Positions 1 through 35,849 are shown, counted from the first letter of the stretch. The stretch: 37,997 nucleotides of DNA from an uncultured Victivallales bacterium (GCA_964652765.1 CAZZBA010000005.1:1-37997); one strand, 5' to 3'. Program-made: numbers and translations. Notes: generated by a model from the letters alone, not told the origin.

Positions 1-125
1 GCAAACAGTGTTTGCTTTGTGTGGCGTTTTGTGGCAAATTCGGGAGTTCAGTGGTATAAGGTGCTTTGAGGAAACGGTTCCGGTTTCCGCCAACATAGGT
101 TTACTAGATGTTTGGAGGCATGATG

Positions 126-3100
126 ATGGCTGCATTTAACGGCGTATTCCGCAAGGGGAACGGTCGCTGGTTTAGCCGGTTGATCCTGGCTGGCGCGGCA
201 CTCCTGGTCACGGGTGGCATTGGGCTGGCGGCACCGGTGCCTGGTGGCAGCGGCTGGCGCACGGCGTCCGGGGCGATGGTCTCGGATGCCGGGGACGGGG
301 CGGTCATGGTGCAGGCATTGGCCGCACCGGCAAACACCCAGCGGCTGGTTTTCCGGTTTCCCGCGGTGGCCCTGAAGCGCGGTCCGGACGGGTTGCTGGA
401 TATATCCCTGCCTTCCGCTGGACAATGGCGGCAGCCGGGCGAGCCTGTGTTGCCGATGCTCTCGACGCGGGTGGCTCTGCCACAGGGGCATGCGCTGGTT
501 TCGTTCAATGTGGTGCCATCCGATCCGCAGGAACTCGTGCTGGATGGCCCGGTGCGCCATGCGCAGCGGCCTTATCCGCTGAGCCGTCCGCAGGACCGGG
601 TGGAAACCCCTGCTTCCGCCGCTATTTACGGTGCGGACTCGCCCTATCCAGCCGTCCTCCACACGGATGGATCTGTGCAGACGAAGCGCGGTGTCGGCTT
701 TGTGGACCTGGCGCTTTTCCCGGTATCGTACCGCCCGGCCAGCGGGCGGCTGACCGCGTATGGAACGTTGACGCTTGAAGTGGTGACGCGGCCGGTCAAG
801 GATCCCGGCATTTCCCTGAATGCGGCGGATGATGGCTGGCGTGCGCGCCTGCGGTCGGCGGATGACCTGGCGGTGCTCGAGTCGCTGATCGAGAACCCGC
901 AGACACTGGCGGAGTATCAGCCCGAGGTGGCTTCTGATGACGTGGGCACGATCTCGCTGGCGGGGGCCGAGGATCCCGGCCAGCCGCCGCTTCCCTGCCG
1001 CCTCGGTAGCGTTTTCAAGCACCTCATTATCACCACCCGCAACATTCGCGACGGGATTGTGGATGCGGGTACGGCGATTGCCCAGATCTTCAGCGAGCAC
1101 GCCTACCTTTTCATCTATCCGGATCCGCAGACGGATTGGGAAATTGATATGCAGGCCGTGGCCGATGCGGGCGGGTATCCCGTGGACATCGGGGATGAAT
1201 TGGAGCAGGAGTTCGTTGACAAGAGTCTGGACGCGCTGGGCGTTGCGTCGAACGACTGGTACTACGCCTTTGAATTCAATGATCCGGCGTTGGATGGTGA
1301 CGCCAGCGGGACGCCCGACTGGATGGAGTTGCTGGTTGGGACGCAAACCAACGGCGTGCCCTTCCGCTTCACGTATGTGGCGTTCACGAACCGGCCGCTG
1401 GATGGCATCGTGGCCTTGCGTCAGGCGCAGGGGTTGTCCTCGACCGTGATCTCGATCGAGTCGATCCTGGAAACCTATCAAAGCCTGGGCATGGAAGAGG
1501 AGCAGGCATTGCGCACGTTCATCCGGGATGCCTACGACAAGTGGATCACGGAATACGTGGTGCTCGTTGGCGATGGCACGGTGATGCCGATGCGTACGCT
1601 GCGTGCTGAGGCCTCGCCCTACATCGATGATCTGCCCAGCGACCTTTATTTCCAGTGTCTGGACGGATCCTTCGATTCCGATGGCAACGGCATCTATGGC
1701 GAGCCGACCGACGGTGCCGACCGGCTGGATGGGCGCCCCGGCGAGGATATCGACCTGTATGCCGAGCTGGCGATCGGGCGGGTTGCCATATCGGATGCCA
1801 ACGCCATGTCGAACTGGGTGGCCAAGGTTGTCCGCTACGAGACCGATCGTCTCGCCGGTACCGCGCCTTACCTGCGGGGCGCCCTGCTGCTGGGCGAGTA
1901 CCTCGGTTTCGGCGGCATCTCCGAGTACGCCTCGCCGATGATGGAGGAAATCCGCCTGGGCTCGTCCGAACACGGTTACCGTACCGAGGGGTTCGCGGCG
2001 CTGGATATCCACACCAATATCGTCACCCTCTACGATGATGAACAGCCCTGGACCAAATACACGGCGGCCGCTTATATCAACAGCAACCAATTCTCGTTGC
2101 TGAACCATCTGGGTCACAGTGATTACAATTACAACATGAAATTCTACACTGAGGATGTGCAGTTCCTGCTGCGCAACGAACGCCCCGCGTTCCTCTATAC
2201 CCAGGGCTGCTGGCCGGGGGCGTTCGATAGGGACTGCATTGCCGGCGAGTTCCTTGGCGGCAGCAGCACGAACGCGCTATTTGGCGGTGTCTTCAATTCG
2301 CGTTACGGCTGGGGCGATTATGACACCACGGATGGCCCCAGTCAGCGCTACAACCGCTGGTTCTGGCATGGCTTCTTCGGAGAGCTGATCCCTGAGACCG
2401 GTGTCTTGAATCAAATGGCCCACGAGCGCAATGCCTCGCGTATCGGCGAGGAATATATGCGCTGGTGCTACTACGAGAGCAACCTGCACGGCGATCCGGC
2501 GCAGTGGCTTTACGGGATCGAACCCTCTGTCACCCTCGATCGCGAGGCCTACCGCTCCGATGCCGATGCCGTTGTCGAGGTGGTCCTGCCGCTGGCCGGC
2601 CCGACCATGCAGGAGGTGGTTGTGACGGTGACGACCTATACCGCGTTCATCGACCCGATCCTCACGACCAATGTGACGTGCTATCGCGTGGGACCGACCG
2701 ATAGGACGGCGCGGTTTGCATCGCTGGCGTTCTCGCTGGCCGATCTGGGCGCGGTCAACGGCGGCACGGTACGCGCCGAGGCGACGCTGTCTCTCGACGG
2801 GATCCCGCAGCTGTGCGACGACCGGGCGGATATCAAGGACGATCCGCCCCGGATCATGGGCCACACCCTGATGGCCGACGAGACCTATATCGATTTCTCC
2901 TTTACCACGGACAACCCGGTGACAAGCGAGGCGCGCATCGGCGACAGTATCCCGCTGACGGCGGACTGGCAGACCGTCTCCGATACCCGCGCCACCTTCC
3001 ATTCGATCCGCTTCGAGGGGCTGGAGCCTTTTACCCAGTACTTCATCGGGGTGCGCATCGAGGATGCCGCCGGTAATGTCGTCAGCATCCCCACCAACCT

Positions 3101-6100
3101 GTTCAGCGAGATCGAGGCGGAGTATTTCACGGTTGCCACGATCGGGCGCGAGACCACGCTGCGGACCGATTGGGAACACAGTGCCGACGGCTGGACCGTG
3201 ACCAACATCAATGGCGGCGTCTGCTGGGAATACGGCCAGCCTCTGACCTACGGCCCGCAGGATGATGCGCGGTGCTGGGGAACCATCCTGAACGGACGTT
3301 ACCCCGATGGTGCCAATGCGCTGCTGACCTCGCCGCCGTTCGGCGTGCGAGAGCGTCCCATGCTGGTTTTCCGTCATTGGCTGGATGTGCAATACTCTAT
3401 GGATATGCAAGGGGTCTCGCCGTCGCCTCCGCCGTTTGGTGATTATGGCAAGGTCGAGGTGCTTTCAAACGGTGTCTGGCATGATGTGACCCGCTACATT
3501 GAGGGGCGCGATGCGGCAAGCTATGTCCGCGTGGTCAACACCGATAACACGAATACGGTGATCACCGGCCAGAGCGATGGCTGGCAGGACGTGCGGGTGA
3601 ACCTGCCAGCGTCATTCGCCAATCAGCCGCTGTCCGTCCGCTTCGTGTTTGTCTCGGACCAGCAGTCGTTCGGGGCGGGCAATCCGGCTGGCTGGTATAT
3701 CGACGAGGTGACGGTCCAGGATGTCCCCGGCAACGGGCTGGGCATCTCGCAGGTCGACGTGAGCGATGTCAATGGCTTCAACGGGCTGACGCTGGTCGGT
3801 GACGCCGACGACCATGCCGAGGCGGGCGAAACGGTAGCGATCCGGCCTTACCTGTTCAATTACGGGACCACGACCTTCGGCAACCTGTCCGGGACCCTGA
3901 CCGTGCAGATCGGCGGCTACCCCGTTACGAATGCGCTGCTGCTTGACGGGGCTCCTGCCGCCGTCAGCTATACCGGACCGATTGCCCCGGCGGATCTTGT
4001 GCCGGCTAACGAGTGGATCCGCCTGCGACTCTCGCCCGGCCTGGCACCGGGAACGGTCGTGACGCTGCTGCAGTCCGTGACCAACGCGGCCGGCCTGCGG
4101 CTGGATTCGCGCTACGACCTGGTGATCAATACCGTGGTGCCGATCAGTGGTCTGGTGATCGATGCCACCACCAGCAATGCGATTGCCGCCGCCACCGTGA
4201 CGGCCGTGCGCGAGAGCTGGCAGCAGGGCAAGGTCACCGGTGCGGATGGGCGATTCGTGTTCAATGGTCTCACCGCCGGTGATGCCTACACCCTGACCGC
4301 CGGCAAGCCCGGCATGTATGCCTCGCAGACGCAGTCGGTAACGGCCCCGGCCAGCAATGTGCTTTTTGTGCTCGGCATGCCGATTGCCAGTTACGCGCCG
4401 ACCTCGCTGGCGTTCACGGTCGTCGCCGGTGGCAGCGTGGGCGACAGCGTGGTGTTCAGTAATGCCGTCGGCGCCACAGCCCCGCTGGATGTAGCGCTGG
4501 AGGAGATCGACTACCATCCGGCCGCCTCGGGATGGCTTGTCGTGACACCGCAAAGCGCACAGCTCGCCCCTGGCGCTGCCTCTACCTTTTCCGTGACAGT
4601 GGATGCCTCTTCGCTGCGTGCCGGGACCTATCTGGCCGAGCTGGTCTTCAGTACCGACGACCCGATGCTTGCCATGGTGCGGGTGCCGGTCGAGGTAACC
4701 GTCTGGCGCGAGCCGATCCTGGCTTTCGGCGGGTTATTGTTCGAGGATGACTATGCCGGGGACGGCGACGGCCAGCTGGAGGCCGGGGAAACCGCCCGCA
4801 TATGGGTTTATCTCAATAACAGCAGCGGGTTGAGCGATGTGGTGGATGTAACCGGTACGCTTAGCACCACCAACACGCATGTGACGATCAACCCGCCGCC
4901 GACGCTGCACTGGCAGTACATCGCCCCCTACAGCTCTCGCCTTTCGACCAACGGCGTCGAGGTGGTGCTCGATCTGGCCACCCCCGCAGGCGAGGTGATA
5001 GACTTTAATATCGAATTGGTCTATTTCGACGGGCTGGTCTGGCAGACCAATCAGGCACCGTTCTCCTACACCTATCTGCCCTACCACTCGGTCAGCGGCA
5101 TCGTCGAAGGGGTGGTCTGGAACGAGAAGAACAAGGCTCCCGATGGAACCGTCCCGGTCGCCGGGGCGCGGGTGACGGTAGAGGATATCCATGGCAACCT
5201 GTTCTCCAGCATGCCGACCGACACCAATGGCGTCTATGTCCTGCCGCCTCTGCCGCACGGGGATCTGTGGTTCAAGGTCTACGAGCCAGACGGCTCGCCC
5301 TACGTCCCGCCCGCCGGAACCAATATTCTCGTGAATGCCGATACGACACAGGACTTCCTGCTCAATAACTACGGCACCAATGGCCCGATCCTGCGTTTCG
5401 AAGAGGTACGGGTCTACGATTACGGCGGCGATTTCGACGGCGCGTTCGAGCCAGGCGAGACTCTCTATATCTATGCCAGTATCTACAACGAGGGTCGCAA
5501 GAATGCCACCAATGTCACCGACTTGATTGAGCTGGCCGACATGGGAGCCTACGGCCCGTTCATGCAGGTCACCCAGGCGTCCACGTTCACGACCAATACC
5601 ATCTACATGGTTCCGGAGTGGGCACGGCGATACGGCTATGAGTATTTGTATTCGGTCGATCTTTATTATTTCGAGGCGACGGTCAATGCCGATGCCGTCG
5701 AGGGGGGCAAGCAGCGCTTCTGGTTGACGACCACCGATGGCGGACGCGTCTGGCCGTTTGATTTCTCGATCACGGTGTCATCGAGCTACAGCATCGGTGG
5801 ACGGGTGACCTATGAGTTTGGCGCGTCCGCGCCTGACATCACAGTCCGGGCGGAATTGCCTGATGGAACCGTTATGACCGATATCACGGACTGGTCTGGT
5901 TACTATGATTTCGAAGGCTTGGCTCCCGGCACGACAGGGATTGTTGTGCGGGCCATCCCGCCCGGTGATTACGCCGTCGAGCCGTTGTCCTACGAGCTCG
6001 GTCCGCTGACCAATGACGTGACGGGCGTGGATTTCGTGCTCAAGGCCAGTCAACTGTTCCTGAGCCCTTCACCGTTGACGGCGACGGTCAACGAGGGGGA

Positions 6101-9100
6101 AAGAACCAATGCCTGGCTGACGATCCGGAATGCCAGCACCAATGCGACGGTCGTTGACCTCAGCGTGGTCTATACGCGTGGCGACGACGATCTCCTGCCG
6201 CCGCCGGAGCACGATCCGCTGTCGCTGATCCTGACGCCGACGACGTCCTGGAACGAACTGGATGCGGATGACTATGTGCCGGGTGAGCTGGAAGTGCGCT
6301 TTGCCGACGGGACCGGCTGGATCGAGCGCGAGGCCATCCTCAAGCGCCATGGCCTGCGGGCGACCCTGCACCTGAAGCTCGTGCCTGCCTGCCTGGCGGT
6401 ACCGGTCGATACGACGGCGCTTGGCGATGCAAAACCCCTGGCGCTGGCACCCCTGGCGCAGGCGCTGCAGGCCGAGCCAGGCGTGCTATACGTCCAGCCT
6501 GCCGCCCGCATGGCGCAGCAGGCGCTGCCGAACGATCCGCTATTCGACAAGCTCTACGGCTTGCACAACACCCGCCAGACCGGCGGTACGCTCGGTGCCG
6601 ATATCAATGTGACGAATCTCTGGGACCGCACGACCGGCTCGCGCGACATCATCGTGGCCGTCTGCGATACCGGGTTCGACAAGACGCATCCCGACCTGCT
6701 TCCCAATTTGTGGAGCAATCCGGGCGAGCTGGCCGGAGATTCCAATTTTGATGGCTATCCGGGTGTCCGGGGGGTTGACGACGACGGGGACGCGACCAAC
6801 CAGCTTTACCATTATGACGAGGTCAGCGGCACGACCGTAGGCCCGGAACTCGTGCACCCGCTCTTTGATTCCGAAATGTGGAAGGATAACCGCACCCGCA
6901 CAGTCGTTCCCGGCGTGCCCGGCACCAACCGGTGGGTTAATGGTGCGAACAGCATTCCGGACTATTTCGAGATGTACCTCAACGGCGAGCTGTCGTTTAC
7001 CGATCTGGTTGCCAGCCGACCGGCCTACTTCGGCGACAGCAACGGCAATGGCATCCCGAATGTCTTCGAGGACATACAAGGGCCCCGCCCCGGCACCCCG
7101 CCCGACGGCATCCCCGATATCTTCGCCGACGAGGATGGCGACGGCATCATCAACGAGACCGGTATCGACTTCCGCGACGAGGATGTCATGCTCGGGGACT
7201 ACAACAACAACGGCCAGCCCCTGATCAAGCAGGTGACAGCTATTCTTCCATGGATCAACTCGACGAGTTACCGGGTCGTGCTGGAACAGTGGAACGGCCT
7301 GGGCCTCGCGGCCGATGACGACGACGAGAACGGTTATGCCGATGATCTGAACGGCTGGAACTTCTATCACGGTGACGGTGACGTGACCGACGGGGACGTA
7401 CTAAGTGCCCACGGGACACACGTCGCCGGCACGATCGGTGCCGTCGGCAGCAACGGCGTCGGTGTCGCCGGCGTCAACTGGAACGTCAGCATCATGCCGC
7501 TGGCCCTGGTGTATCGCGCGGAGGATCCGTACACCGAATCACCGTTCACCAGCAGTGCCCGGATCGCCCAGGCGATCGAGTACGCCATTACCCATGGGGC
7601 TCGCGTCAGCAACCACAGTTGGGGCGGCGCCGCCGCTTCCGGCGTGCTTTACGAGATCATGAAGCTGGCCGAGCGCGACTACAATCACCTTTTCGTGATT
7701 GCCGCCGGCAACTCGGCCAATGATGTCGACAACCGGAAGTTCTATCCGGCCTACTTCAGCACGGTGCTTAACAACGTCATCACCGTGGCGGCTGCCGATG
7801 ATCATGATCAGTTGGCCGAGTTCAGCAACTACGGGCTCAACAGTGTGCAACTGGCCGCGCCGGGCGTGGATATCTACAGCACCTGGTCGAGCCGGTCTGT
7901 CCAGATCCTCTTGATGTACCCGGAGACGGAAGCGTATGTGGATGAAATGCTGGCGTCGGGTGAGCTGATCCTGCAGGACGGGGCCTACTACCGCCGCATG
8001 AGCGGTACCTCCATGGCGGCCCCGCATGTGGCCGGGGCGGCGGCACTGCTCTGGTCGCTGAGCCCGGATGCTAATTACAGTGTGATCAAGCGTGCGCTGC
8101 TGGACGGTGTGCGCCTCGAGTCCAATCTCGATGGCTGGGTCAAGACCGACGGGTTACTCGATCTCGGGCGGGCAGCCCAGATAATGGGTACCGATTGGCT
8201 GAGATTCAGCACGAACCAGATCCCGGTCGGCGCCGGTGCCTCGGTGCAGGTTGAGGTGCTATTCAACCCTGATCTGGATACACGGCCGGGCTTCTTCGAG
8301 GCCGAGATCGTGGGCGATTCGGATGTCGGTCGCGACCGCATACCGGTGACCCTGACCGTCCTGTCTGGCGGATCGCTGGAGGTGGATGGCGTCCGCATTA
8401 CCGCGGATACCGATAACGACGGATTTGCCGAACCCGGCGAGACGGTTTCGTTCGTGATCGACATTTACAACCCGGGCAACACCACGTTCATCAATCTCGC
8501 TGGAACCCTGGCGGCGGTGACCCCCGGGGCGGGGGTAACGACGACGACGGCCGGTTGGGACTACCTGTATGGTGGCCAGAGTGGTGAATCGCTGACGGCG
8601 TTCACGGTCACGATCCCTGCCAGCGCACCAGCCGAGACGCTGTTTGAATTGACGCTGACGGCGGATGATGTCGCCGCGCAGATCTTGGGTGTCTCCCTGG
8701 CGACGCAGACCCGATACGCTATTGCTGGCCGCGTGGTGACGACGGGCGGCAGCGGCATCCAAGGCGCCATGGTCGAGTACCGCGGTGCGTCGGGTGGCTA
8801 TGTGCTCAGTGGCACCAACGGCGTCTTCATTCTCTCGGGCCTGGTGGCGGGTGATTACCTGCTGCGGGCGATTCCGACCGGCTATGCCCGGTCGGCGGAT
8901 CTGCCTGTGACCCTCGCCACCAACGATCTGACCGGTATCAAACTTGAAGTCGGTGCCCCGGTAATCGGCCTCTCGGCGACCAATATACAGGCGGTCCTGG
9001 TCAACGAGATGGACTGGATTGCCTCGGTTGCGCTCAGCAATACGGCTGCCGACGCATTCGGTTACGCGCTGGATGTCATGCCGCGCCGCCGCATCGGGCT

Positions 9101-11840
9101 GTTTGCCGATGGAACCAGCCTGGGCGTGCTGGTCGCCCCGCTCGAGCGCATGGGCTTCGAGGTGGACTACTACACCAACAACTACGCGACGGTGCACGAG
9201 ATTGATCCGGCCACCGCCATCGAGGAAATTGTCCAGGATGTGCGCTACACGGATGATGATGCCAGGGTGTTCCCCTATGACATGGTGATTGCCGACCTGA
9301 CCGGGCCACATGGCGGCGGCCGCGTCTTCAGTGAGGCGGAGGCGGATGTCTTCTCGCGCTACCTCGATCTCGGCGGAGCGTTGCTCTTCACCGGCGGCAA
9401 CTCGCTTAATCGCCCGGATAATGCCGGGATCGCATCACTGTGTGGCGTGGATCTCGGCTATGTCTCCACCAGTCGTGTGAGCGAGGCGCAGGCGGTAACC
9501 AACTGGAATGGGGTCTTTGTGACTCTTGACGCTGGCGATCGCCTGTCGGTCAGCAATTTCGTCCACGACCTCGCGGCCCCGACCAACGCGGCCACGGAGG
9601 TGCTCTTCACTGCCGGGGCGGCCTCGAAGCTCACGCGTCTGGCGGGGGTGGGAGCCAAGGGTCAGGGGCTGGTCATGCTCTGGGGCGGGAATCCGGGGGC
9701 ATGCGACTGGAGTAGCGAAGGCGCGTGGCTGGATGTGTTGCGCGATATCCTGCACCAGCGGTTCATGCAGCCGATGGCCACCCAGACGAGCGTTCCCTGG
9801 CTGACGGCTACGCCGGTGACCAACAGCGTTGCTGCCGGCACGGTTAGTCTTTCCGTGACGCTATCTTCCGGTTACCTGGCGGCGGACACCTACCGGGCCG
9901 TGATCCTGCTGCGCGGGCTGGACCGCGACGAGGAGGTCCTGGCGATCCCGGTTTCACTGACGATCTCGCCCTACAATCTGCGGGCCTATACCAGCACGGG
10001 TGTGATGGACACCCAGGGTCTTCCGCTTTCCGGCGACGGTAGCAACGATTCCCCGCTCTACCAGGTGATCTACGCCGGGACCAACGGTGTGGCCGATGCG
10101 CCGGATACCGCTACCGGCTCGCCGGGTGGCGATGACCAGTTGCTGGCGGCGATCCCCTCCGGTCAGGCGTTCGGACGCTTCGGGGATGGCGAGGGTGTCG
10201 TTCCCGATACCGGCATTTTCGACCGGCACTTCATCAATACGATCCCGTCCGATGCGGTCAATCCGCGGGTGTACGTGCGTGCCTGGGACGGGGCGTCCTT
10301 CGCCTCCTCGCTGACCTATGGCGATTCCGGCCTCAGCAATCTGGTTTTCAGCACTGCGGCGGCGGTCGATTTCGGCACCTGGACGTTGAACGAGTCGATC
10401 AGTCTGGCGTTGGATTCCAACGGTGATTCGCTACCGGATGCCTGGCTGTTGCAATACCGTCCGGATATAGATCCGCTGGCGGCGAACGGTCCGCTCGAGA
10501 CGGATTATGATGCCACGGTCATCGCGACGATCAATGCAGCGGGTGGAGCCACACCGCAACCCTATCGCGTGCGGTTCTCAATGCCGGGTGCGGCGTTCAT
10601 GTTCGTACTCGACAAGGCCAACAACCGCCTGATCTCGATCCCGACGAACTCGCCGGCGACACAGATTCGGTACGGCAGCGCGGGTACGGCCACCAACCAG
10701 TTCGCCCAGCCCGAAGGGTTGGCGGTCGATCCGCGGGCCGGGCATTACCGACTTGCCGTGGCGGACACGGCCAATAACCGTATCCAGTTGTTCACGTACA
10801 ACCCGACCAATGGCGTTATCAGCTTTGAGCGGTCGGTCGGATCCCTCGGTAGCGGAGTTGGACAGTTCAAGAGTCCCGGTGGCGTGGCGTTCGACAACAC
10901 CGGGCGTGTCTTCGTGGCTGATACGGGTAACAACCGGGTCGCGATTTTCCGGGTCTCCGACGCGGTCTGGTACGGGTCCTTCACCGGTACGGGTGCCTAC
11001 GTCCTAAACGCACCGCGCGGGATCGCCTTTGACACGCACTTCAGTGATGGCGGCGTCTGGGTCTGCGATACGGGCAACGATCGCATGTCGCTGTATTTCG
11101 ACAACGGCACCTTCCGTCGCAGCTTCGGCATGGCTGGGACGGTAGACGGCCGGTTCAACGATCCGGTGGATGTCGCCATCTGGCAGGTGGGTACGCATCG
11201 CCGCCTCGTGGTGGCTGACAAGGTCAACAACCGGATGCAGGTCTTCAACGCCGATGGGTCGCATCTGGCCTCCGTCGGGACCGGTGGCGGACTGCTCGGC
11301 CAGTTGTTGCTGCCGCATGGCGTGGCACCGCAGAACAACAGTGCCAACCTTTTCATCGCCGACACCGGCAATGCGCGGATCCAGCGCTTCGCGCTGACCT
11401 TGGATGCCGATGGCGATGGCATGGACGATTTCTGGGAGGATCTGAATGGTCTGGATTCAACCATTGATGATGCCTACGGGGATTTGGATAGCGATGGGCT
11501 TTCCAACCTGGCCGAATACCTGATCGGCACCGAACCGGACAATGCGGATACCAATGGCGATGGCATAACGGACGGCGACGCTGTGAACGGTATGTTGAAT
11601 CCGTTGTCCTTTGCACCATTCCAGATTGAATCGCTGGCTCCGGCCCCGCTCGGTGGTGGGGTGGTCATCGAATGGCAATCCGTGGCTGGCGAGGTTTACC
11701 TGATTGAGACAAATGGTTCGCTGATGACGGGTGTCTGGGGGGTCTACACCAATGTCGTCGGAACCGGGGGTACCAGTTCGGTGGAAATGCCGCTGCCTGG
11801 GAGTTCGTTCCTGTATTTCCGGATGCAGAGGATACCGTAG
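126..11840 (+). CDS. Giant (~3,900 aa) secreted multidomain protease: signal peptide, C25 propeptide, gingipain-like peptidase C25, FN3-like and jelly-roll domains, 4x (GDxDG..E(A/P)GET beta-sandwich + carboxypeptidase-regulatory-like) modules, BACON-like domains, subtilisin S8, GATase-like fold, NHL repeats, DxDxDG repeats, C-terminal beta domain
   Basis: Uninterrupted ORF 108..11840. GGAGG at 114-118 lies 7 nt before ATG 126 (ATGs at 108, 120 and 123 are alternatives). Basic then hydrophobic N-terminus. C25 motifs: YVVLVGD, SDLYF, AIGRVA, NHLGHS, QGC, LHGDP. S8 motifs: VAVCDTG, HGTHVAGTIG, AAGN, GTSMAAPHVAG. NHL motifs: F..P.G.AVD/VADT.NNR repeated. Confidence 0.93.
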   Translation: MAAFNGVFRKGNGRWFSRLILAGAALLVTGGIGLAAPVPGGSGWRTASGAMVSDAGDGAVMVQALAAPANTQRLVFRFPAVALKRGPDGLLDISLPSAGQWRQPGEPVLPMLSTRVALPQGHALVSFNVVPSDPQELVLDGPVRHAQRPYPLSRPQDRVETPASAAIYGADSPYPAVLHTDGSVQTKRGVGFVDLALFPVSYRPASGRLTAYGTLTLEVVTRPVKDPGISLNAADDGWRARLRSADDLAVLESLIENPQTLAEYQPEVASDDVGTISLAGAEDPGQPPLPCRLGSVFKHLIITTRNIRDGIVDAGTAIAQIFSEHAYLFIYPDPQTDWEIDMQAVADAGGYPVDIGDELEQEFVDKSLDALGVASNDWYYAFEFNDPALDGDASGTPDWMELLVGTQTNGVPFRFTYVAFTNRPLDGIVALRQAQGLSSTVISIESILETYQSLGMEEEQALRTFIRDAYDKWITEYVVLVGDGTVMPMRTLRAEASPYIDDLPSDLYFQCLDGSFDSDGNGIYGEPTDGADRLDGRPGEDIDLYAELAIGRVAISDANAMSNWVAKVVRYETDRLAGTAPYLRGALLLGEYLGFGGISEYASPMMEEIRLGSSEHGYRTEGFAALDIHTNIVTLYDDEQPWTKYTAAAYINSNQFSLLNHLGHSDYNYNMKFYTEDVQFLLRNERPAFLYTQGCWPGAFDRDCIAGEFLGGSSTNALFGGVFNSRYGWGDYDTTDGPSQRYNRWFWHGFFGELIPETGVLNQMAHERNASRIGEEYMRWCYYESNLHGDPAQWLYGIEPSVTLDREAYRSDADAVVEVVLPLAGPTMQEVVVTVTTYTAFIDPILTTNVTCYRVGPTDRTARFASLAFSLADLGAVNGGTVRAEATLSLDGIPQLCDDRADIKDDPPRIMGHTLMADETYIDFSFTTDNPVTSEARIGDSIPLTADWQTVSDTRATFHSIRFEGLEPFTQYFIGVRIEDAAGNVVSIPTNLFSEIEAEYFTVATIGRETTLRTDWEHSADGWTVTNINGGVCWEYGQPLTYGPQDDARCWGTILNGRYPDGANALLTSPPFGVRERPMLVFRHWLDVQYSMDMQGVSPSPPPFGDYGKVEVLSNGVWHDVTRYIEGRDAASYVRVVNTDNTNTVITGQSDGWQDVRVNLPASFANQPLSVRFVFVSDQQSFGAGNPAGWYIDEVTVQDVPGNGLGISQVDVSDVNGFNGLTLVGDADDHAEAGETVAIRPYLFNYGTTTFGNLSGTLTVQIGGYPVTNALLLDGAPAAVSYTGPIAPADLVPANEWIRLRLSPGLAPGTVVTLLQSVTNAAGLRLDSRYDLVINTVVPISGLVIDATTSNAIAAATVTAVRESWQQGKVTGADGRFVFNGLTAGDAYTLTAGKPGMYASQTQSVTAPASNVLFVLGMPIASYAPTSLAFTVVAGGSVGDSVVFSNAVGATAPLDVALEEIDYHPAASGWLVVTPQSAQLAPGAASTFSVTVDASSLRAGTYLAELVFSTDDPMLAMVRVPVEVTVWREPILAFGGLLFEDDYAGDGDGQLEAGETARIWVYLNNSSGLSDVVDVTGTLSTTNTHVTINPPPTLHWQYIAPYSSRLSTNGVEVVLDLATPAGEVIDFNIELVYFDGLVWQTNQAPFSYTYLPYHSVSGIVEGVVWNEKNKAPDGTVPVAGARVTVEDIHGNLFSSMPTDTNGVYVLPPLPHGDLWFKVYEPDGSPYVPPAGTNILVNADTTQDFLLNNYGTNGPILRFEEVRVYDYGGDFDGAFEPGETLYIYASIYNEGRKNATNVTDLIELADMGAYGPFMQVTQASTFTTNTIYMVPEWARRYGYEYLYSVDLYYFEATVNADAVEGGKQRFWLTTTDGGRVWPFDFSITVSSSYSIGGRVTYEFGASAPDITVRAELPDGTVMTDITDWSGYYDFEGLAPGTTGIVVRAIPPGDYAVEPLSYELGPLTNDVTGVDFVLKASQLFLSPSPLTATVNEGERTNAWLTIRNASTNATVVDLSVVYTRGDDDLLPPPEHDPLSLILTPTTSWNELDADDYVPGELEVRFADGTGWIEREAILKRHGLRATLHLKLVPACLAVPVDTTALGDAKPLALAPLAQALQAEPGVLYVQPAARMAQQALPNDPLFDKLYGLHNTRQTGGTLGADINVTNLWDRTTGSRDIIVAVCDTGFDKTHPDLLPNLWSNPGELAGDSNFDGYPGVRGVDDDGDATNQLYHYDEVSGTTVGPELVHPLFDSEMWKDNRTRTVVPGVPGTNRWVNGANSIPDYFEMYLNGELSFTDLVASRPAYFGDSNGNGIPNVFEDIQGPRPGTPPDGIPDIFADEDGDGIINETGIDFRDEDVMLGDYNNNGQPLIKQVTAILPWINSTSYRVVLEQWNGLGLAADDDDENGYADDLNGWNFYHGDGDVTDGDVLSAHGTHVAGTIGAVGSNGVGVAGVNWNVSIMPLALVYRAEDPYTESPFTSSARIAQAIEYAITHGARVSNHSWGGAAASGVLYEIMKLAERDYNHLFVIAAGNSANDVDNRKFYPAYFSTVLNNVITVAAADDHDQLAEFSNYGLNSVQLAAPGVDIYSTWSSRSVQILLMYPETEAYVDEMLASGELILQDGAYYRRMSGTSMAAPHVAGAAALLWSLSPDANYSVIKRALLDGVRLESNLDGWVKTDGLLDLGRAAQIMGTDWLRFSTNQIPVGAGASVQVEVLFNPDLDTRPGFFEAEIVGDSDVGRDRIPVTLTVLSGGSLEVDGVRITADTDNDGFAEPGETVSFVIDIYNPGNTTFINLAGTLAAVTPGAGVTTTTAGWDYLYGGQSGESLTAFTVTIPASAPAETLFELTLTADDVAAQILGVSLATQTRYAIAGRVVTTGGSGIQGAMVEYRGASGGYVLSGTNGVFILSGLVAGDYLLRAIPTGYARSADLPVTLATNDLTGIKLEVGAPVIGLSATNIQAVLVNEMDWIASVALSNTAADAFGYALDVMPRRRIGLFADGTSLGVLVAPLERMGFEVDYYTNNYATVHEIDPATAIEEIVQDVRYTDDDARVFPYDMVIADLTGPHGGGRVFSEAEADVFSRYLDLGGALLFTGGNSLNRPDNAGIASLCGVDLGYVSTSRVSEAQAVTNWNGVFVTLDAGDRLSVSNFVHDLAAPTNAATEVLFTAGAASKLTRLAGVGAKGQGLVMLWGGNPGACDWSSEGAWLDVLRDILHQRFMQPMATQTSVPWLTATPVTNSVAAGTVSLSVTLSSGYLAADTYRAVILLRGLDRDEEVLAIPVSLTISPYNLRAYTSTGVMDTQGLPLSGDGSNDSPLYQVIYAGTNGVADAPDTATGSPGGDDQLLAAIPSGQAFGRFGDGEGVVPDTGIFDRHFINTIPSDAVNPRVYVRAWDGASFASSLTYGDSGLSNLVFSTAAAVDFGTWTLNESISLALDSNGDSLPDAWLLQYRPDIDPLAANGPLETDYDATVIATINAAGGATPQPYRVRFSMPGAAFMFVLDKANNRLISIPTNSPATQIRYGSAGTATNQFAQPEGLAVDPRAGHYRLAVADTANNRIQLFTYNPTNGVISFERSVGSLGSGVGQFKSPGGVAFDNTGRVFVADTGNNRVAIFRVSDAVWYGSFTGTGAYVLNAPRGIAFDTHFSDGGVWVCDTGNDRMSLYFDNGTFRRSFGMAGTVDGRFNDPVDVAIWQVGTHRRLVVADKVNNRMQVFNADGSHLASVGTGGGLLGQLLLPHGVAPQNNSANLFIADTGNARIQRFALTLDADGDGMDDFWEDLNGLDSTIDDAYGDLDSDGLSNLAEYLIGTEPDNADTNGDGITDGDAVNGMLNPLSFAPFQIESLAPAPLGGGVVIEWQSVAGEVYLIETNGSLMTGVWGVYTNVVGTGGTSSVEMPLPGSSFLYFRMQRIP
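1020..2505 (+). other. Peptidase C25 (gingipain-like, clan CD) catalytic domain within the first giant CDS
   Basis: Putative catalytic His (codon 2115, NHLGHS) and Cys (codon 2208, YTQGCWPG) are 31 aa apart, close to the His-Cys spacing of RgpB. The domain ends in the conserved L.GDP. Boundaries are approximate. Confidence 0.85.
6270..8170 (+). other. Subtilisin-like S8 domain with I9-like propeptide within the first giant CDS
   Basis: Triad: Asp codon 6666, His 7410, Ser 8010. Oxyanion Asn in AAGN. Propeptide YVPGELEVRF...YVQP precedes PNDP. Confidence 0.92.
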
Positions 11841-12893: not shown

Positions 12894-12935
12894 TCGAAGT
12901 TCAGGGATATGGGCCCGATACGGGGAGAGAATAAT

Positions 12936-15900
12936 ATGAATACCATGAAACAAACCGGTGTGATCAATAAGATGGTTGGCTCGGCCTGGCTGCTGGCGGC
13001 CATGCTCGGCCTGGCCGTGCAGGTGCAGGCGGCGGACCCGATACCGCAGAGCATAACCGTCACGTCGACGCCCGCCAATGGCACGCATTATGCCTATGGA
13101 GAATCCATGCTCGTCAGGGTCCGGTTCGACCGTGCCATAGCCGTTGCCAATGGGGTTGTCGGCACCAGTCCCTATGTCAGCCTGACTATTTCCCCGACGG
13201 ATGCGACCAGCAACCGAGCCACATATCTCTTTGAAGCGGGCACCGATCTATTCCTCGAATATGTCGTTCAGGCTGGCGATTTCGCTTCCCCGCTGGCCAC
13301 GTCCGGTACGCTGCCGTTACGCGTTACGGGTACCACGGCGATCCAGGATGCGGCTTTTCCAGCGGATACCTGGAATACCAGTGATAACGTGCCGACCGCC
13401 GGGACCAATGCCCTGTCGGCAGCGGGGGCGGTGATCCGTACGGTCAGCATCACACCGGCAACGGCCGTCCTCCTGGAAGGGCAGACGCAGCTTTACACGA
13501 TCAACCGCGGCGGGCCGCGAGCCATTGCGCTGAACGTGAGCCTGACGTCCAGCCTGCCGAGTGTGGGCGCGGTTCCGGCCACGGTGACCATTCCCGCAGC
13601 TGGCGACCAGATCCAGTTCTCGGTGACGGCACTCTCGGTCGGTGTATCGACGATCACGGCCGACGCCTACCCGCTGCTCGGGGCGGCGGCGAATGAAACC
13701 AGCACGCTGACCGTGAATGCCGGTCCGGCGCCAACATTCACGATCCTGCCGCCCGTCACGCTTTATGAGGGCGTTAACTTTGACCCGACCACCTATCCGT
13801 ATCAAGGCAGCGGCACCATCCGGCTTTCGCGGGCGCCGATCGCACCGATCACGGTGACCCTGACCAGTTCAAACCCGGCGCGGCTGGGTTTCCTTGGCAA
13901 TGTCAATACCGTTACGTTCCTGGCTGGCCAGACCGAAAAGACGTTCCAGCTGGAAGGGTTGGGCGGAAATGCGGCAGTGCAGATCACGGGTACGGCCACC
14001 GCCCCGTATGTCTCCGATGGCGTGGCCGCCTCGGTCTCGATACTCAACGTGCCGCCTGTGATCAACAGCCCGGCCGATCCCTGGACGATTGCCAATAACT
14101 CCGAGGGTCGCACGGTGACATTTTCCTGGAGCGGCTCGGATGTCGCGGCCGATATTCCAAATCTGCAGGCCTATTACGATTTCGGTGACGGTAGCAATAC
14201 CGGCTGGCTTAACGGTGACGCCGGCACGACGACGCATGTCTACAACCTCGCGGGGACGTTCGGGGTGACAATCCGTTACCGCGACCAGGATGGCGGAGAG
14301 GTGACGCGCACGTCGGTGATTACGATTGATCCCGCTACCGAGATCCTCTTGACTGAGGTTGTCCGTGGCGACCCCGCAGATCCTCAGATACCACCCGGAT
14401 ATAAGGGTCTGCCCGGCCTGGGTCAGGGCGGGATTAACGATACGCTGGTCGAGACGCTGAAAGTGGCCGTGCCGGGTCCGCAAACCAACGTATTCACCAT
14501 CAAGTACAGCCCCACGCAGCCTTCCGTCGTGTTGGTTGCCAGTCCCTTTACCTCTGATATCGTGACGGCTGGCGCCACCAATATATACGACAGCTTCTTC
14601 CACGTCTGGATTGGTGAAGGATTCGTCTCGCCGGGTGCCATTGTGCCGATCGCCAATCCCACTGCGCGACTTGAGCTCAATGGCCAGGACCGCGATATCC
14701 AGGGCGTTTTCTCACGTGAATTCGCCCCGCGCGACAACTATGGCGATATCGATAACGATGCCTTGCCCGACCAGTGGGAGGAACTCTGGTGGCCGGAGCA
14801 ATTGATGTTCGAAACGCCCAACCGCGCGGCTAATGATGACGCCGACTTCCTGCCGCGCGGGGCCAATGCCAACATGGCCTATCCGGCGGGCGGTGGCAAC
14901 TATACACCCGATGGTGCGGGATTCGGCAATGTTTACGAAGTCCGCGGTCTTGATATTGACTTGAATGCCGCCAATTCGGATACCAATCCGGCTGGCGTCA
15001 TCCTGGACGAACCTCAGTATACGAACGATACGCGCGAGTTCTTCGGCACCGACCCGACGGTGGATGATACCGATGGCGACGGCTTCTCCGACGGCTGGGA
15101 ATACTATTTCTGGGTGAATGCCGAGTTCCGCGGTATTACCGGTGTCAGCTACAACCCTGGATCGCCAATGCAGGACGGTACCATTATTCCCTCCACCTTC
15201 ATCGAGGCGGCGTTTCATCCGCTGGTGGCGGGCAGTCAAGGCGCGGATCCCGATGGTGATGGGCTTTCCAATATCGAGGAATACGCGCTCGGCACCGACC
15301 CGATCAACTGGGACAGCGATGGCGATACCATGGCCGATGGCTGGGAAGTTTTCCGCAATCTCAATCCGCATGGCGATGATGCGGGTGGCAATCCCGATGG
15401 CGACTATATGGCGGCACTGGGGTATGATGCGAGTGTGCCGCGTCCGGCAGGCCCCCTGCTGTTCAGTGTGCATTACTATGTTTACGACCTGCTTCAGTAC
15501 GACCCCCGCACGGGCTGGTCAGGAACCTACACGCTACGTTCCCGTGCCGGTGCTGCCTTGGCTCCTGACACGACCGCGATGCTGAATATCGATGAATATG
15601 CCTTGATGCAGTTCTGGATCAACGAAAATGTGGTGGGTGCTGTCACCCCGGGAATGTGGGGCCGTTATTCCACTAATCCTCAGAGCAACGATACCGATGG
15701 TGACGGGGCGACTGACGGCTGGGAACTGTATGTCCATTTTGATCCGTCGCTTAACCAGGCTGGTCTCTTATGGGATGTCGACATGGATGGGTCCTTCCTG
15801 CAGAACGAATTCGCCGGTGTGGAGAGTTCTCCGAATTCAGGGGCGAGTCTGACGATCGGCTCGCAAACCACCGCGGGCACCTCAACCAACGCCACCGGCG

Positions 15901-18900
15901 TCGTGACCACGAACTCGACCACCACGGTGGTGGTAGTGGACTCCACCCCCTTGACGAACATCAACGAGCCCTGGTGGAACAAGTTCTGGCCGTCTGACCC
16001 GAACAATGCCGATACAGATGGTGACTTCGTTGGCGATGCCACCGAGCGGGCGGCTTTCCCCGTGGGCCCGTTCCTGTACACTGCTCCGGCGGAATGGAAT
16101 CAAGACTATATCCGTGGGGCGCGGGCCGGTGGCGGCCTCAACCCCTGTAGTGTCGATACCGACATGGACTTCATTCCCGACTTCTGGGAGGTCCAGTACC
16201 GCTACGACCGGGTGCAGTTCATGAATCCGGATGGCAGTACCTATCCTGTCGGTGGCATGGACGGATCGATCTTCGACTCGCGCAGCGGCCTGACCGATCT
16301 GACCGGCGCCGAGGAGAACTATGACTACGATAGTGATGGCCTCAACAACTATCAGGAATATTATGTCAACGCCATGTGGCACTTCAACTACGACAAGTGG
16401 GTTTCCGGTCTCGGAAACGGTGCCTATCCGCCTGCCGGCTTGATGCAGGGCGCGCCGCTCCATTGGGACTGGGCGATTGCGGCCAACTACTGGGAGCAAC
16501 CGATTTACGAGGGAATGTCTCCACCCTTCCATACCCCGTTTGTTTTTATCCTGCCCGAACCCCGTCCGTTCGTCCCGGCCTATGCCTCGGCCGATCCGAG
16601 TATGTGGGACACGGATTACGACGGGATGGATGATCATTATGAGATGTACTACGCCCTGAATCCGCTCTGGAGCGAGCAGCTCGATGCGATTGCCAAGGGT
16701 GCGCCTGCCACGGTGATGGATATCCGGGTACAGCCCTGGGCGGGAGGCGCGTCGCTGTCCGATCCGGACCAGGACGGTATTCCCAACTGGGAAGAGGCAA
16801 TCTTCCCGAGCCGCCCCATGCCCGAGAACCTCAATTCAAGTCCCTCGCCCCACTGGGTGACGGATACCTCGTACGAGCAGAGCTGGGTCAATCTCTATTA
16901 CCAGCCTCTCGGTCACGCCTGGTACTGGATGGAGGGTCTTGAGGGTGATCCGGTATACCCCTATCCGGCCGTCGTTTCACTGGCGGCATTCCCGCCGACC
17001 TATGTCTATTCCTTCGCCAACGACGAGGGCTACGATACCGATAACGACAACATCCCCGACCGGATGGAGACCACGGGCGCGGACAATGTCGGCCTGACCG
17101 ACCTGACGGACTTCGATAGTCCGCGCCTGCGCAAGGCTCTGTATCTCGACGGTGACAGTGCGGCGCGTACCAAGTTCGGCGTATCGCACGAGCTGAACCA
17201 GTTGCGGAGCTGGACGGTCGAATTGTGGGTGCGTTCGGAAGAGCCCGTCTCGCCGACCGGCGAACGGCAGATCATCATCGAGCGTCCGTTGCGGGGGCAG
17301 CCGACCGATCCGATGCCCGCACCGGAACTGGTGCGCCGTACGTTCCGTGTCGGCCTGGAAGCCGACGGCCGTCCGTTTGCGGAATACAATAACATGGGCA
17401 ACGAACTGCTTTCCGAGAACGTAACCGGGACGGGCTGGACGCTGCAGACTAACGTCTGGTACCATATCGCGGCGGTCCTCGATGGCGACAACAGCCAGTT
17501 CTCGCTGTACGTCAATGGCCTGCTCGCCGCCCGCAAGGGAACCGCCCTGATCCCGGCCACCGGTGTCATTGATGGCAACCCGCCGCTGGTCCTGAGTGCC
17601 CCCATTGTGATCGGTGCTGCCGACCGCAATCCCAATGGACGGGTCCAGAATCCGGTGCCCGGATCGGTGACGCCGCCGGATCTGCATTCGCACTTCAAGG
17701 GCTGGGTGGATGAGATCCGTGTCTGGCACGGTGGGCGTACACAGGAGGAGGTAAATGCCTCCCGAATGCAGCGCTTCACGCTGGATGATGTGAAGCACTC
17801 CATGACGAACTATGCCGCCGCCCAGGCGATACTTGAAGATCTGAATCCGCCGGATATGGGATACCAGATCTACAGTAATCTCCCGCCGGTGGTGTTGTAT
17901 CACTATGCGTTTGATAATCTGCCCGATCCCAAGCATGACCCGATCGTGCCGCAGCATTTCGAGCTGCTCAACGGACGCCCCAGCGACGGGTCGTATGTCG
18001 GTGTTCCCTGGTGGTGGCAGGCTCCTGACCGCAGCCGGGTCTACAACGATTACCGGTTCATCCAGTGGGCGGAAAATACCGCCTCGCACGTGCCAGCCTT
18101 GCCGTTGGTTAACCGCTTCGGTAATGTGGTAGACTACCAGTACGGGGTCGTTCAGTCCTCGCCATTCTGGACATCGCCGCCCTGGATGACCAATACGGCA
18201 CCGAACGCGACATTCGTGTTCCCCAACAAGACCTACCCCTCGCAGAACGATTACTACAGCGGCTTGTCGGCCCTGTCAGAGGGCGGGCGCAGCACGACCG
18301 GCCTGTTGCCGCTCTGGTATGCCAAGGCCGACATGGACGTGCCGCTCTGGGATAACGAGACTCCGGGCACGGCGTCCTACGACAGCAATGGCGACGGCAT
18401 TGCCGACTGGTGGGCACTGAGCCACGGCTTCGACCCGTTCAGCACGAATTCGATCGCCGACGGGGATGCCGACAGCGACGGCATCAGCAACTACTGGGAA
18501 TACCGCATCGGTTCCGATCCCAACGCCATGTATTCGCTCGATCCGACCGGAGACCGTACGGATGCGGAATATGATGCCGATGGCGACGGGTTGTCCAATC
18601 TGGACGAAACCACGGTGTTCATGACCGATCCGTCGAATCCGGATACGGATGATGACGGCTATAACGACGGGAATGAGGTCAAGGGTTGGGAGCCGGCCAG
18701 CGCGGATGAGTACGGCATAGGCCCTCAGGTGTCTTCGCCTGTGGAATCGCTGAGTCCGGAGGTGCGCCGCAGTTTCGTGGCGGCCGGGCGTAATATCGAA
18801 GTGCCGAAGAGCGACCGCTTCGCCTTCCTCGGCATCGAGGAACTCATCCTGCCGGGACCGACCGTCGATATCACCGCCCCGGCCGATGGCGCGAACATCG

Positions 18901-31971: not shown

Positions 31972-32109
31972 TATCGGTATGCAAGTCGATAAGTGTGTGC
32001 TAATATAGCACCGGACAACCCTGCCTGTCGAATTCCCAGGGAAAAGGGGTCCACGGGCGGGACGGGCGTGTCCGTCCGCACCGCAGACGTTCCGCGATCG
32101 AGGTGTCAC

Positions 32110-35789: not shown

Positions 35790-35849
35790 ATTATCATGAT
35801 TATTCCGTAAAGTGCAGTTGTCTGTTTATGGAGTGATCGGGGGTTGCAA

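Follow-up and report, generated by a model that had tools for sequence, protein, structure and literature searches.

Introduction

The gingipains RgpA and Kgp of Porphyromonas gingivalis are long multi-domain chains that are cut into protease-adhesin complexes. PorU belongs to the same peptidase family, C25. In subtilases, the propeptides are removed autocatalytically. Here we describe a 3,910-residue protein of a freshwater bacterium in which a gingipain-like C25 protease and an S8 subtilase are joined in one chain, each behind a prodomain of its own. The host is apparently a member of the PVC group, not of the Bacteroidota. This dual-protease layout is real, uncharacterised and recurrent in many uncultured bacteria.

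Results

One reading frame encodes both proteases

In the window (the whole 37,997-nucleotide stretch analysed), a single uninterrupted open reading frame on the plus strand (108..11840, stop included) encodes 3,910 amino acids. The version of the gene caller (P0002; 3,905 residues) starts 5 residues further in. An extent of 330..8170, given in the preliminary description, is too short, as an end at 8170 drops the last third of the protein. In a Pfam search, the matches to PF01364 (C25) and PF00082 (S8) shared one reading frame, with scores far beyond chance. From the N- to the C-terminus, the chain consists of a signal peptide, a gingipain-type prodomain, the C25 domain, beta-sandwich spacers, a subtilisin-type prodomain and the S8 domain, followed by further beta-sandwich domains, an NHL propeller and a C-terminal domain. 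Residues 1-42 (108..233, plus strand) read as a probable Sec signal peptide, with basic residues R15/K16/R20/R24 ahead of the hydrophobic run LILAGAALLVTGGIGLAA.

Two metatranscriptome libraries from a single study contained short contigs that matched the gene at an identity of at least 99%, a weak hint of transcription that may also reflect DNA carry-over. No ortholog was found in any of five genomes of the same genus (68-94% complete), and the gene is therefore either dispensable or often unassembled.

The N-terminal module is a gingipain-type zymogen

Residues ~63-230 (294..797, plus strand) form a gingipain-type prodomain. Profile A1, compared with the PDB, matched the prodomains of Kgp (5mun, E 3.8e-15) and RgpB (4ief_A, E 8.7e-11). 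The predicted fold agreed, with Foldseek TM-scores by target of 0.73-0.75 (0.75 for 4ief_A) and a VIA superposition on 5mun_A with Z 13.4 and an rmsd of 3.4 over 165 residues (model residues 20-187). Profile and fold together identify an N-terminal inhibitory prodomain of the gingipain type, in line with the propeptide proposed earlier at this position. Note that PF08126 did not reach E 0.01 in the Pfam search of this protein alone; the precomputed domains of several relatives do include it.

A linker (aa 231-300; 798..1007, plus strand) connects the prodomain to the catalytic domain. It contains the nearly invariant residues Arg247, Asn263 and Tyr270 (A1 columns R204, N220 and Y227) and was modelled with low confidence at aa 234-242 and 278-287 (pLDDT <50; model residues 191-199 and 235-244). 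This linker is probably the processing region, where cleavage would take place.

The C25 catalytic domain (aa ~301-803; 1008..2516, plus strand) matched Peptidase_C25 (PF01364) at aa 432-798 with 125.3 bits (cut-off 23) and RgpB (1cvr) in the profile comparison with E 2.4e-20. The AF2 model of the N-terminal module had a mean pLDDT of 89.8 and a pTM of 0.90. Its closest folds in VIA were RgpB (4ief_B, Z 39.1, rmsd 2.5 over 324 residues; 1cvr, Z 38.8) and Kgp (4rbm, Z 36.9), and Foldseek matched the alpha/beta fold of clan CD with E 8.3e-14. Model score, clan CD fold and the equivalents of the RgpB His/Cys residues thus assign the domain to family C25.

The His/Cys pair at nucleotides 2115 and 2208, noted in the preliminary description, was recovered. 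His670 (NHLGHS; 2115..2117, plus strand), within ...LNHLGHSDY..., aligns with RgpB His211, a position counted on the printed RgpB alignment. Cys701 (YTQGCW; 2208..2210, plus strand), within ...YTQGCWPG..., falls in the block aligned to RgpB FDVACVNGDF, which we take to hold Cys244. In the profile alignment, NHLGH is paired with RgpB ...YTGHG and QGC with RgpB ...VAC. Across the family, His is present at the first position in 222/226 sequences and Cys at the second in 223/226. The two residues are thus predicted from alignment to be the catalytic pair equivalent to His211/Cys244 of RgpB. RgpB and Kgp have a third catalytic residue, Glu152 and Asp388, respectively. A candidate equivalent here is Glu597, which is also nearly invariant (E554 of A1) but in the HMM alignment lies two positions off Glu152 of RgpB. 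The Ser that follows the catalytic His had been considered unusual. It is indeed present, but Ser is common here in the subfamily: the residue is Ala in 129, Ser in 51, Gly in 28, Cys in 17 and Thr in 1 of 226 sequences.

The first strand of the C25 fold is followed by a lineage-specific insert of 108 residues (aa 319-426; 1062..1385, plus strand), accounting for the interruption of about 110 residues described before. It is predicted to be an ordered alpha/beta subdomain (pLDDT 83-95 in ten-residue blocks) without a Pfam match. No more than 8 of the other 58 rows in alignment A1 have residues in these columns, and the insert is confined to the closest relatives (6 of 78 giant relatives, including the copy described here).

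A role as a PorU-like sortase, in which the C25 domain would act as a transpeptidase, clipping off a C-terminal signal and fixing cargo to the cell surface, had also been suggested. We consider this highly improbable. PorU shares the family, its structure 6za2 was matched weakly in the profile comparison (E 8.3e-5) and in fold (Z 18.3, rmsd 4.0 over 276 residues), and other large proteins of the genome have the C-terminal domain in common with this one. However, the matches to RgpB and Kgp are twice as strong in fold (Z 39.1 and 36.9), the module bears an inhibitory prodomain of the gingipain type, and the PorU model NF033707 scored 25.3 and 29.6 bits against an equivalog cut-off of 420. The T9SS sorting domain TIGR04183 had no match on the protein (E ≤0.01) or in the genome, which is 82.8% complete and was searched with no positive control. 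Likewise, SprA and GldM/PorM had no match in this 82.8% complete genome, and the control genomes gave none either. The closest relatives have record titles of the Lentisphaerota and Kiritimatiellia, groups which to our knowledge are not known to have a T9SS. The genome also has two further C25 genes that are more PorU-like, with 160-187 bits.

The internal module is a subtilase with a predicted propeptide

The S8 catalytic domain (aa ~2153-2700; 6564..8207, plus strand) matched Peptidase_S8 (PF00082) at aa 2179-2666 with 162.4 bits (cut-off 21.8). The triad reported earlier is complete and in place, with Asp2187 (nucleotide 6666), His2435 (7410) and Ser2635 (8010), to which the oxyanion Asn2535 (7710) can be added. 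All four residues are invariant in 29/29 aligned sequences. The model score, the ordered Asp-His-Ser triad with the oxyanion Asn and the subtilisin fold place the domain in family S8.

Directly upstream lies the putative subtilase propeptide (aa 2056-2134; 6273..6509, plus strand). In the AF2 model it has the order strand-helix-strand-strand-helix-strand (E17-26, H32-41, E44-49, E55-60, H71-82, E87-95), and by fold comparison it is predicted to pack on the catalytic domain. Propeptide and catalytic domain jointly aligned to two uncleaved pro-subtilisins, unautoprocessed pro-subtilisin E (3whi, Z 42.7, 343 residues) and pro-Tk-subtilisin (2e1p, Z 38.1, 342 residues), both from model residue 19, and to fervidolysin (1r6v, Z 37.9, 392 residues) and SUB1 (4tr2), both from model residue 4. 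The uncleaved pro-subtilisins gave 342-344 aligned residues, versus 268-277 for propeptide-free chains of subtilisin and thermitase. The sequence signal is weak, with PF22148 at E 0.048 and 14.5 bits (cut-off 21). Thus, the earlier suggestion of an internal I9-like propeptide is borne out by the modelled fold but barely by sequence.

Between the Asp and His blocks, the S8 domain contains an insert of ~190 residues (aa ~2213-2404; 6744..7319, plus strand), seen as a gap in the alignment to deseasin MCP-01 (3vv3). The Asp-to-His spacing is 248 residues, and ranges from 34 to 453 in 28 other aligned sequences. The insert is rich in Asp, Gly and Asn with DxDxDG-like motifs, has no Pfam match and is poorly modelled (ten-residue pLDDT blocks mostly 44-73). 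Judging from these motifs it possibly binds calcium, and it could affect activity. The preliminary description did not remark on it.

We also considered whether the protein is mainly an adhesin or surface fibre that works through its NHL and beta-sandwich domains, the protease domains being inactive or vestigial. About three quarters of the 3,910-residue chain are non-catalytic, and both catalytic domains have large lineage-specific inserts, which would speak for such a role. Nevertheless, the catalytic residues are kept (His in 222/226, Cys in 223/226, S8 residues in 29/29) and both prodomains are retained, a pattern that argues for selection on activity and makes an adhesin without protease function improbable.

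Spacers, NHL propeller and C-terminal region

The ~1,200 residues between the two protease modules (2598..6227, plus strand) contain beta-sandwich spacer or binding domains by Pfam, including CarboxypepD_reg (best stretch aa 1346-1416), SdrD_B-like and weak MAM-like and BACON-like stretches, with approximate internal borders. Further downstream, an NHL-repeat beta-propeller region (aa ~3380-3800; 10245..11507, plus strand) matched NHL (PF01436) with 64 bits (cut-off 20); an NCBIfam ScyF-like NHL model matched with E 5.9e-35, below its own cut-off. NHL repeats are present in 23 of the 78 giant relatives.

The chain closes with TSP3-like Asp-rich repeats and a C-terminal domain of ~70 residues that ends in ...FLYFRMQRIP (11508..11837, plus strand). 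This region has no Pfam match. It weakly matches other large open reading frames of the same genome (contigs C75, C405 and C44), and on this sequence resemblance is possibly a shared anchoring or sorting module. A neighbouring open reading frame of 5,484 residues, separate from the fusion (12909..29363, plus strand), ends similarly (...SRFYRVVVV...). The domains of this neighbour comprise seven LamG-type stretches, PKD, TSP3 and, within the chain, a fervidolysin-type prodomain with S8.

C25+S8 fusions recur among relatives with varied layouts

Of 78 giant relatives, 47 have a C25+S8 fusion, as do 16 of 150 cluster representatives and 9 of 72 species-genome loci. The preliminary description had asked whether such fusions are common and already characterised: they are common in public metagenomes, but a literature search found no characterisation of them. 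Independent assemblies from four sources preserve the full architecture (P0003-P0016; 3,520-3,939 residues, 49-87% identity in the C25 region). Among the relatives surveyed, the C25+S8+NHL layout occurs only in records of the Lentisphaerota and Kiritimatiellia. The prodomain+C25 head often occurs without any S8 (31/78 giants, 134/150 representatives), and the C25 module therefore has no specific link to an S8 partner.

The position of the head bears on whether C25 does no more than mature its own chain. In that case it would be the self-processing peptidase of a large surface protein, trimming or freeing domains of it, and S8 would be the actual extracellular effector, freed by C25 in a true cascade. 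In 138 of 149 representatives, the prodomain+C25 cassette starts before residue 450 and is thus N-terminal; it heads proteins with very diverse downstream domains. By precomputed Pfam domains these include other proteases, of papain type in P0064, clostripain type in P0041 and M36 in P0070. Such a role for C25 would account for this arrangement. However, S8 has its own prodomain and should not require C25 for activation, and 134 of 150 head-bearing relatives have no second protease to activate. We regard maturation by C25 as unlikely, though deserving some weight.

Discussion

By analogy with the known families, we think it reasonably probable that the protein is a secreted dual-zymogen polyprotein whose self-cleavage yields a surface protease complex. 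Once exported through Sec, the two proteases would each fold against their own prodomain and then be released from it. Autocatalytic loss of the mid-chain subtilase prodomain, near aa 2135-2141, would cut the polyprotein in two, giving an N-terminal C25 fragment and a C-terminal S8-NHL fragment. This site is deduced from the homologous deseasin MCP-01, whose chain in the crystal starts three residues ahead of the aligned PNDPLF motif. The C25 prodomain would come off around aa 274-293, in the disordered linker. The resulting fragments may then attack proteins or glycoproteins outside the cell, at its surface or nearby, and the non-catalytic domains would provide spacing, binding and anchorage. 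Of the cascade originally proposed, self-processing is in keeping with two modules that each follow a prodomain; activation of one protease by the other would be a further assumption.

Compared with PorU, the C25 module has a common core fold but a different domain order. Related in architecture are giant proteins from metagenome-assembled genomes of Chitinispirillaceae and Chitinivibrionales, also uncharacterised, in which the same prodomain+C25 head (41-47% identity) is followed by S8. These giants are 2.8-3.6 thousand residues long, lack the NHL propeller and the large S8 insert and have other spacers. In the source records they are named 'S8 family serine peptidase', 'choice-of-anchor D domain-containing protein' or 'subtilisin family serine protease'.

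With the gingipains RgpB, RgpA and Kgp (1cvr, 4ief, 4rbm, 5mun) the protein shares the prodomain and clan CD folds, the organisation as a zymogen with an N-terminal inhibitory prodomain and the placement of His and Cys in the same aligned blocks, at a sequence identity of merely 16-19%. It also resembles RgpA and Kgp in its length and multi-domain make-up, and in that the chain may be cleaved into fragments that stay associated. Unlike the gingipains, it has the 108-residue insert after the first strand and a second complete protease in the chain, and Pfam and NCBIfam searches revealed neither a T9SS C-terminal domain nor haemagglutinin/adhesin domains in it. The proposed processing would resemble the cutting of RgpA and Kgp, but in a host apparently of the PVC group instead of the Bacteroidota, in whose genome (82.8% complete, no positive control) a T9SS was not found.

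The S8 module is closest to deseasin MCP-01 (3vv3), its best match both in sequence (E 1e-54) and in fold (Z 45.3, 41% identity, rmsd 2.0 over 310 residues). As in subtilases of the SUB1 and fervidolysin type, the triad and oxyanion Asn are present and the propeptide is predicted to be positioned as in uncleaved pro-subtilisins. In contrast to deseasin, SUB1 and fervidolysin, the S8 domain has the ~190-residue insert between the Asp and His blocks and the zymogen is internal, beginning at residue ~2056 of 3,910, so that removal of its propeptide must split the chain.

A single intact gene joins a C25 and an S8 protease

The C25+S8 fusion is real and intact. It is encoded by a single uninterrupted frame (108-11840, + strand; 3,910 aa), with an even G+C content of 0.61-0.64 in 2-kb windows. 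The source genome comprises 4.66 Mb in 635 contigs (82.8% complete), and the window is its contig C5. The preliminary description, made from the sequence alone, had placed the fusion at 330-8170; the fusion itself was confirmed, but the ORF proved half as long again. The proposed anatomy was correct, with every catalytic residue at the position named: His670 (nt 2115, motif LNHLGHSDY) and Cys701 (nt 2208, motif YTQGCWPG) in the C25 module, and Asp2187 (nt 6666), His2435 (nt 7410) and Ser2635 (nt 8010) in the S8 module, all on the + strand.

In the Pfam search, Peptidase_C25 covered aa 432-798, scoring 125.3 bits against a cut-off of 23, and Peptidase_S8 covered aa 2179-2666 with 162.4 bits against 21.8. 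Four stretches of CarboxypepD_reg, one SdrD_B-like stretch and NHL repeats were identified as well. A putative Sec signal peptide opens the chain (aa 1-42, judged from the sequence). Mostly beta-sandwich domains occupy aa ~830-2040 and ~2700-3380, followed by the NHL repeats (aa ~3380-3800) and, in the last 110 aa, TSP3-like Asp repeats and a terminal domain of ~70 aa. This full-length layout is kept in independent assemblies (related proteins P0003-P0016; 3,520-3,939 aa), with C25 regions 49-87% identical. Note that a segment between the S8 and NHL parts (aa ~2950-3180, about nt 8950-9650) is conserved among orthologs, with the consensus ...ALFDDG...MGF.VD.YTNN...YD.VIADL.G..G.GR...FTG.NPL.RPDN. 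It had no match in a Pfam search and looks like an alpha/beta domain of unknown family.

The C25 module is gingipain-like

A single-sequence phmmer search of the C25 region against the PDB returned only a chance match (cecropin, E 0.34) and was meaningless, so that a profile was required. The profile of 59 relatives (alignment A1) matched RgpB (1cvr) at E 2.4e-20, the Kgp catalytic domain (4tkx, 4rbm) at E about 2-3e-12, and the prodomains of Kgp (5mun, E 3.8e-15) and RgpB (4ief_A, E 8.7e-11). The match to PorU (6za2) was weaker (E 8.3e-5). The family motif NHLGH aligned with ...NYTGHG of RgpB, the His being His211 as counted along the RgpB line, and YSQGC aligned with ...FDVAC, whose Cys we take to be Cys244.

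An AlphaFold2 model of aa 44-830 built on A1 (mean pLDDT 89.8, pTM 0.90) matched the RgpB fold with a Z-score of 39.1 (rmsd 2.5 Å over 324 residues), followed by Kgp (Z 36.9), PorU (Z 18.3) and separases (Z about 16-18). Model residues 20-187 matched the Kgp prodomain (Z 13.4), and Foldseek agreed with the gingipain-like fold. His670 and Cys701 come after model strands E621-625 and E651-655, respectively, which is presumably the clan CD layout. Profile, fold comparison and Foldseek thus support the N-terminal propeptide and His/Cys pair originally proposed. Judged by E-values and Z-scores, on which the placement among RgpB, Kgp and PorU rests, the module is gingipain-like rather than PorU-like.

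A PorU-like sortase role had been offered as one possible function. The weak profile match is in its favor, whereas the PorU model scored only 25-30 bits on the fusion protein (cut-off 420) and the fold is far closer to RgpB than to PorU, so that this role is disfavored. Searches of the 82.8% complete source genome, run without a positive control, found no T9SS C-terminal domain, SprA or GldM. The genome encodes two further C25 genes, L001 (G000:C53:5880-6905) and L002 (G000:C405:214-1242), both of a different C25 subfamily. Each encodes a protein of ~890-900 aa with a full-length Pfam C25 match (242-247 bits) in its C-terminal half. Against the PorU model they scored 160-187 bits, above the fusion protein but below the cut-off. 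Neither was matched at E <=0.001 with the C25 module of the window as query.

Both catalytic residues are conserved in the family, His670 in 222 and Cys701 in 223 of 226 aligned members. The Ser after the catalytic His, noted earlier as an oddity, is a normal variant here: the position is taken by Ala (129 members), Ser (51), Gly (28), Cys (17) or Thr (one). The interruption of the C25 fold by ~110 residues is real and spans aa 319-426 (nt 1062-1385). These columns are filled in at most 8 of the 58 other rows of A1. The insert is present in 6 of the 78 proteins of 2,150-6,843 aa that match the C25 region (hereafter giant relatives; the window's own copy counted), and in one of the best 150 of 5,363 cluster representatives retrieved at E <=0.001 by exhaustive search. 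It had no match in a Pfam search and was modeled as an ordered alpha/beta subdomain (pLDDT 83-95 in ten-residue blocks). This young, lineage-specific insertion follows the first strand (HLIIT, aa 305-309).

The S8 module carries an internal propeptide

The closest solved relative of the S8 module is deseasin MCP-01 (3vv3; E 1e-54, 41% identity), on which the model superposed with Z 45.3 and rmsd 2.0 over 310 residues. The triad reported earlier, Asp2187/His2435/Ser2635, is invariant in all 29 aligned sequences, as is the oxyanion Asn2535. An insert of ~190 residues (aa ~2213-2404) separates the Asp and His blocks; it has a high content of Asp, Gly, Asn and Pro, contains DxDxDG-like motifs, was poorly modeled and had no match in a Pfam search. 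The Asp-to-His spacing is 248 aa here versus 34-453 aa in the 28 other aligned sequences, indicating that this loop is prone to insertions.

The region preceding the catalytic domain (aa 2056-2134) has the predicted order strand-helix-strand-strand-helix-strand. Together with the catalytic domain it aligned to uncleaved pro-subtilisin E (3whi, 343 residues), pro-Tk-subtilisin (2e1p, 342 residues), fervidolysin (1r6v, 392 residues) and SUB1 (4tr2, 398 residues), with alignments beginning at model residues 4-19. This co-alignment with uncleaved pro-forms supports by fold the internal I9-like propeptide of the preliminary description. The tail of this propeptide reads …YVQPAARMAQQA. At the sequence level, it matched the fervidolysin prodomain model below threshold (E 0.048). 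The deseasin crystal chain begins three residues ahead of the aligned PNDPLF motif, and the pro/mature junction is therefore expected near aa 2135-2141.

Distribution of the fusion

S8 is carried by 47 of the 78 giant relatives, the window's own copy counted (precomputed Pfam domains and local phmmer), and NHL by 23. The exhaustive search retrieved 1,263 cluster representatives at E <=1e-30. Among the best 150 of the 5,363 at E <=0.001, the prodomain was present in 144 and S8 in 16; the C25 domain started before residue 450 in 138 of 149. A scan of species-representative genomes with the single protein found no relative, and the narrower alignment A3 as query recovered 72 loci. S8 was present in 9 of these 72 ORFs, and in 8 of the 55 that end within their own locus. 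That the C25 head mostly occurs without S8 argues against an obligate pairing of the two proteases. Note that the prodomain+C25 head is also fused to other protease accessions in precomputed Pfam data, namely PF03415 (protein P0041), PF00112 (P0064) and PF02128 (P0070), which we take to be clostripain-type, papain-type and M36, respectively; dual-protease giants are thus not limited to C25+S8.

By record title, C25+S8+NHL was seen only in Lentisphaerales, Victivallales or Kiritimatiellia, and C25+S8 without NHL in Chitinispirillaceae and Chitinivibrionales. Going by such titles, the C25 subfamily extends to PVC bacteria, Fibrobacterota, Desulfobacterota, Planctomycetota, several candidate phyla and Thermoplasmata-type archaea. 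The closest species-genome locus (62% identity) belongs to a record titled Lentisphaerales, and one member of the fusion protein's cluster has a Kiritimatiellae name, so that the source organism probably belongs to the PVC group. The fusion ortholog was absent from the matches in all five same-genus genomes (68-94% complete); the best match among 40 relatives was a 3,717-aa frame, 50% identical, in a same-order genome. On a FastTree phylogeny of 211 C25 domains, the S8 label takes no fewer than 15 changes; 4 are needed for the S8+NHL group and 2 for the group with S8 but no NHL. We draw no inference from these values on the number of fusion origins, since truncated proteins were scored as lacking S8 and 15 near-duplicate members (P0214 onward) were excluded.

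The preliminary description had allowed that such fusions might be common and already characterized. They are indeed common (47 of 78 giants, 16 of the best 150 representatives, 9 of 72 loci), but literature searches yielded no description of them. The fusion recurs in public data, uncharacterized, under automatic names such as 'S8 family serine peptidase' and 'subtilisin family serine protease'. One paper deals with processing domains of the caspase fold within large surface proteins (PMC3482391), and another mentions dockerin-bearing C25 and S8 enzymes, as separate proteins, in Cloacimonadota (PMC8542988).

Neighboring genes and a shared C-terminal domain

About 1 kb downstream lies a second giant ORF (12909-29363, + strand; 5,484 aa) with seven LamG-type stretches, PKD and TSP3 repeats. 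It has its own internal fervidolysin-type prodomain and S8 domain (aa ~3494-3876), so that two giants with internal subtilase zymogens adjoin. Their ends are also alike (11508-11837 and 29000-29363): Asp-rich TSP3-like repeats precede a domain of ~70 aa, which closes with F-[FY]-R-[VM]. This domain matched no Pfam or NCBIfam model, and the C-terminal 146 aa of the fusion protein are without a Pfam match. Other large ORFs of the source genome, on contigs C75, C405 and C44 (loci L017, L020 and L021), match the domain weakly. One possibility is that PVC bacteria use this shared, unnamed domain at the C-terminus for anchoring or sorting.

Between the giants, a 278-aa ORF (11853-12689, + strand) has an N-terminal hydrophobic segment followed by low-complexity Ala/Pro/Glu-rich sequence. 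Neither Pfam nor tblastn against the relatives' loci, which cover <1.1 kb downstream of the orthologs, gave a match to it. Further downstream on the + strand lie a 1,227-aa ORF with five CHB_HEX_C_1/Fn3_assoc repeats (31993-35676) and a 403-aa AAA_14/DUF4143 ATPase (35844-37055).

Three studies contributed six DNA runs, labeled freshwater or lake, that contained 20-91% of the gene's sampled words; runs with smaller shares were left aside in judging habitat. Two metatranscriptome libraries, both from one study, hold short contigs that map on the fusion gene; gene parts without such contigs carry no information on expression. Together these data hint that the gene may be expressed.

Proposed processing and comparison with known systems

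For a chain of this domain order, with intact catalytic residues, two prodomains and a conserved full-length layout, the known behavior of subtilases and gingipains suggests a possible course of events. The protein would be exported, and each protease would fold against its own prodomain. The S8 propeptide would be removed autocatalytically near aa 2135-2141, necessarily splitting the chain there, and the C25 prodomain would be removed in a low-confidence linker (aa ~274-293). The fragments could then act on extracellular substrates. The cascade first proposed, in which one protease frees or activates the other, would be a further possibility.

To our knowledge, C25 proteases have been studied almost only as the gingipains and PorU of Bacteroidota. 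The subfamily to which the fusion gene belongs is very large, unstudied and found at the head of giant secreted proteins. Nothing known is overturned, and both modules are conventional members of their own families. Two complete zymogens in one chain offer a clean system for polyprotein cutting and assembly outside the T9SS, and may help to show which substrates are broken down by these abundant heterotrophs of fresh water and the gut.

We advance a broader model tentatively, considering it rather unlikely to hold as a whole. The prodomain+C25 cassette, found in the 5,363 cluster representatives, would serve giant surface proteins across many phyla as a general head for activation or processing. 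The giant polyprotein of Lentisphaerota/Kiritimatiellia would cut itself at two built-in zymogen junctions, yielding a surface complex of a cysteine and a serine protease with an NHL propeller, anchored by the unnamed C-terminal domain common to the 5,484-aa S8 giant. Functionally, such a complex would parallel the gingipain-adhesin complexes, having itself arisen in the absence of type IX secretion.
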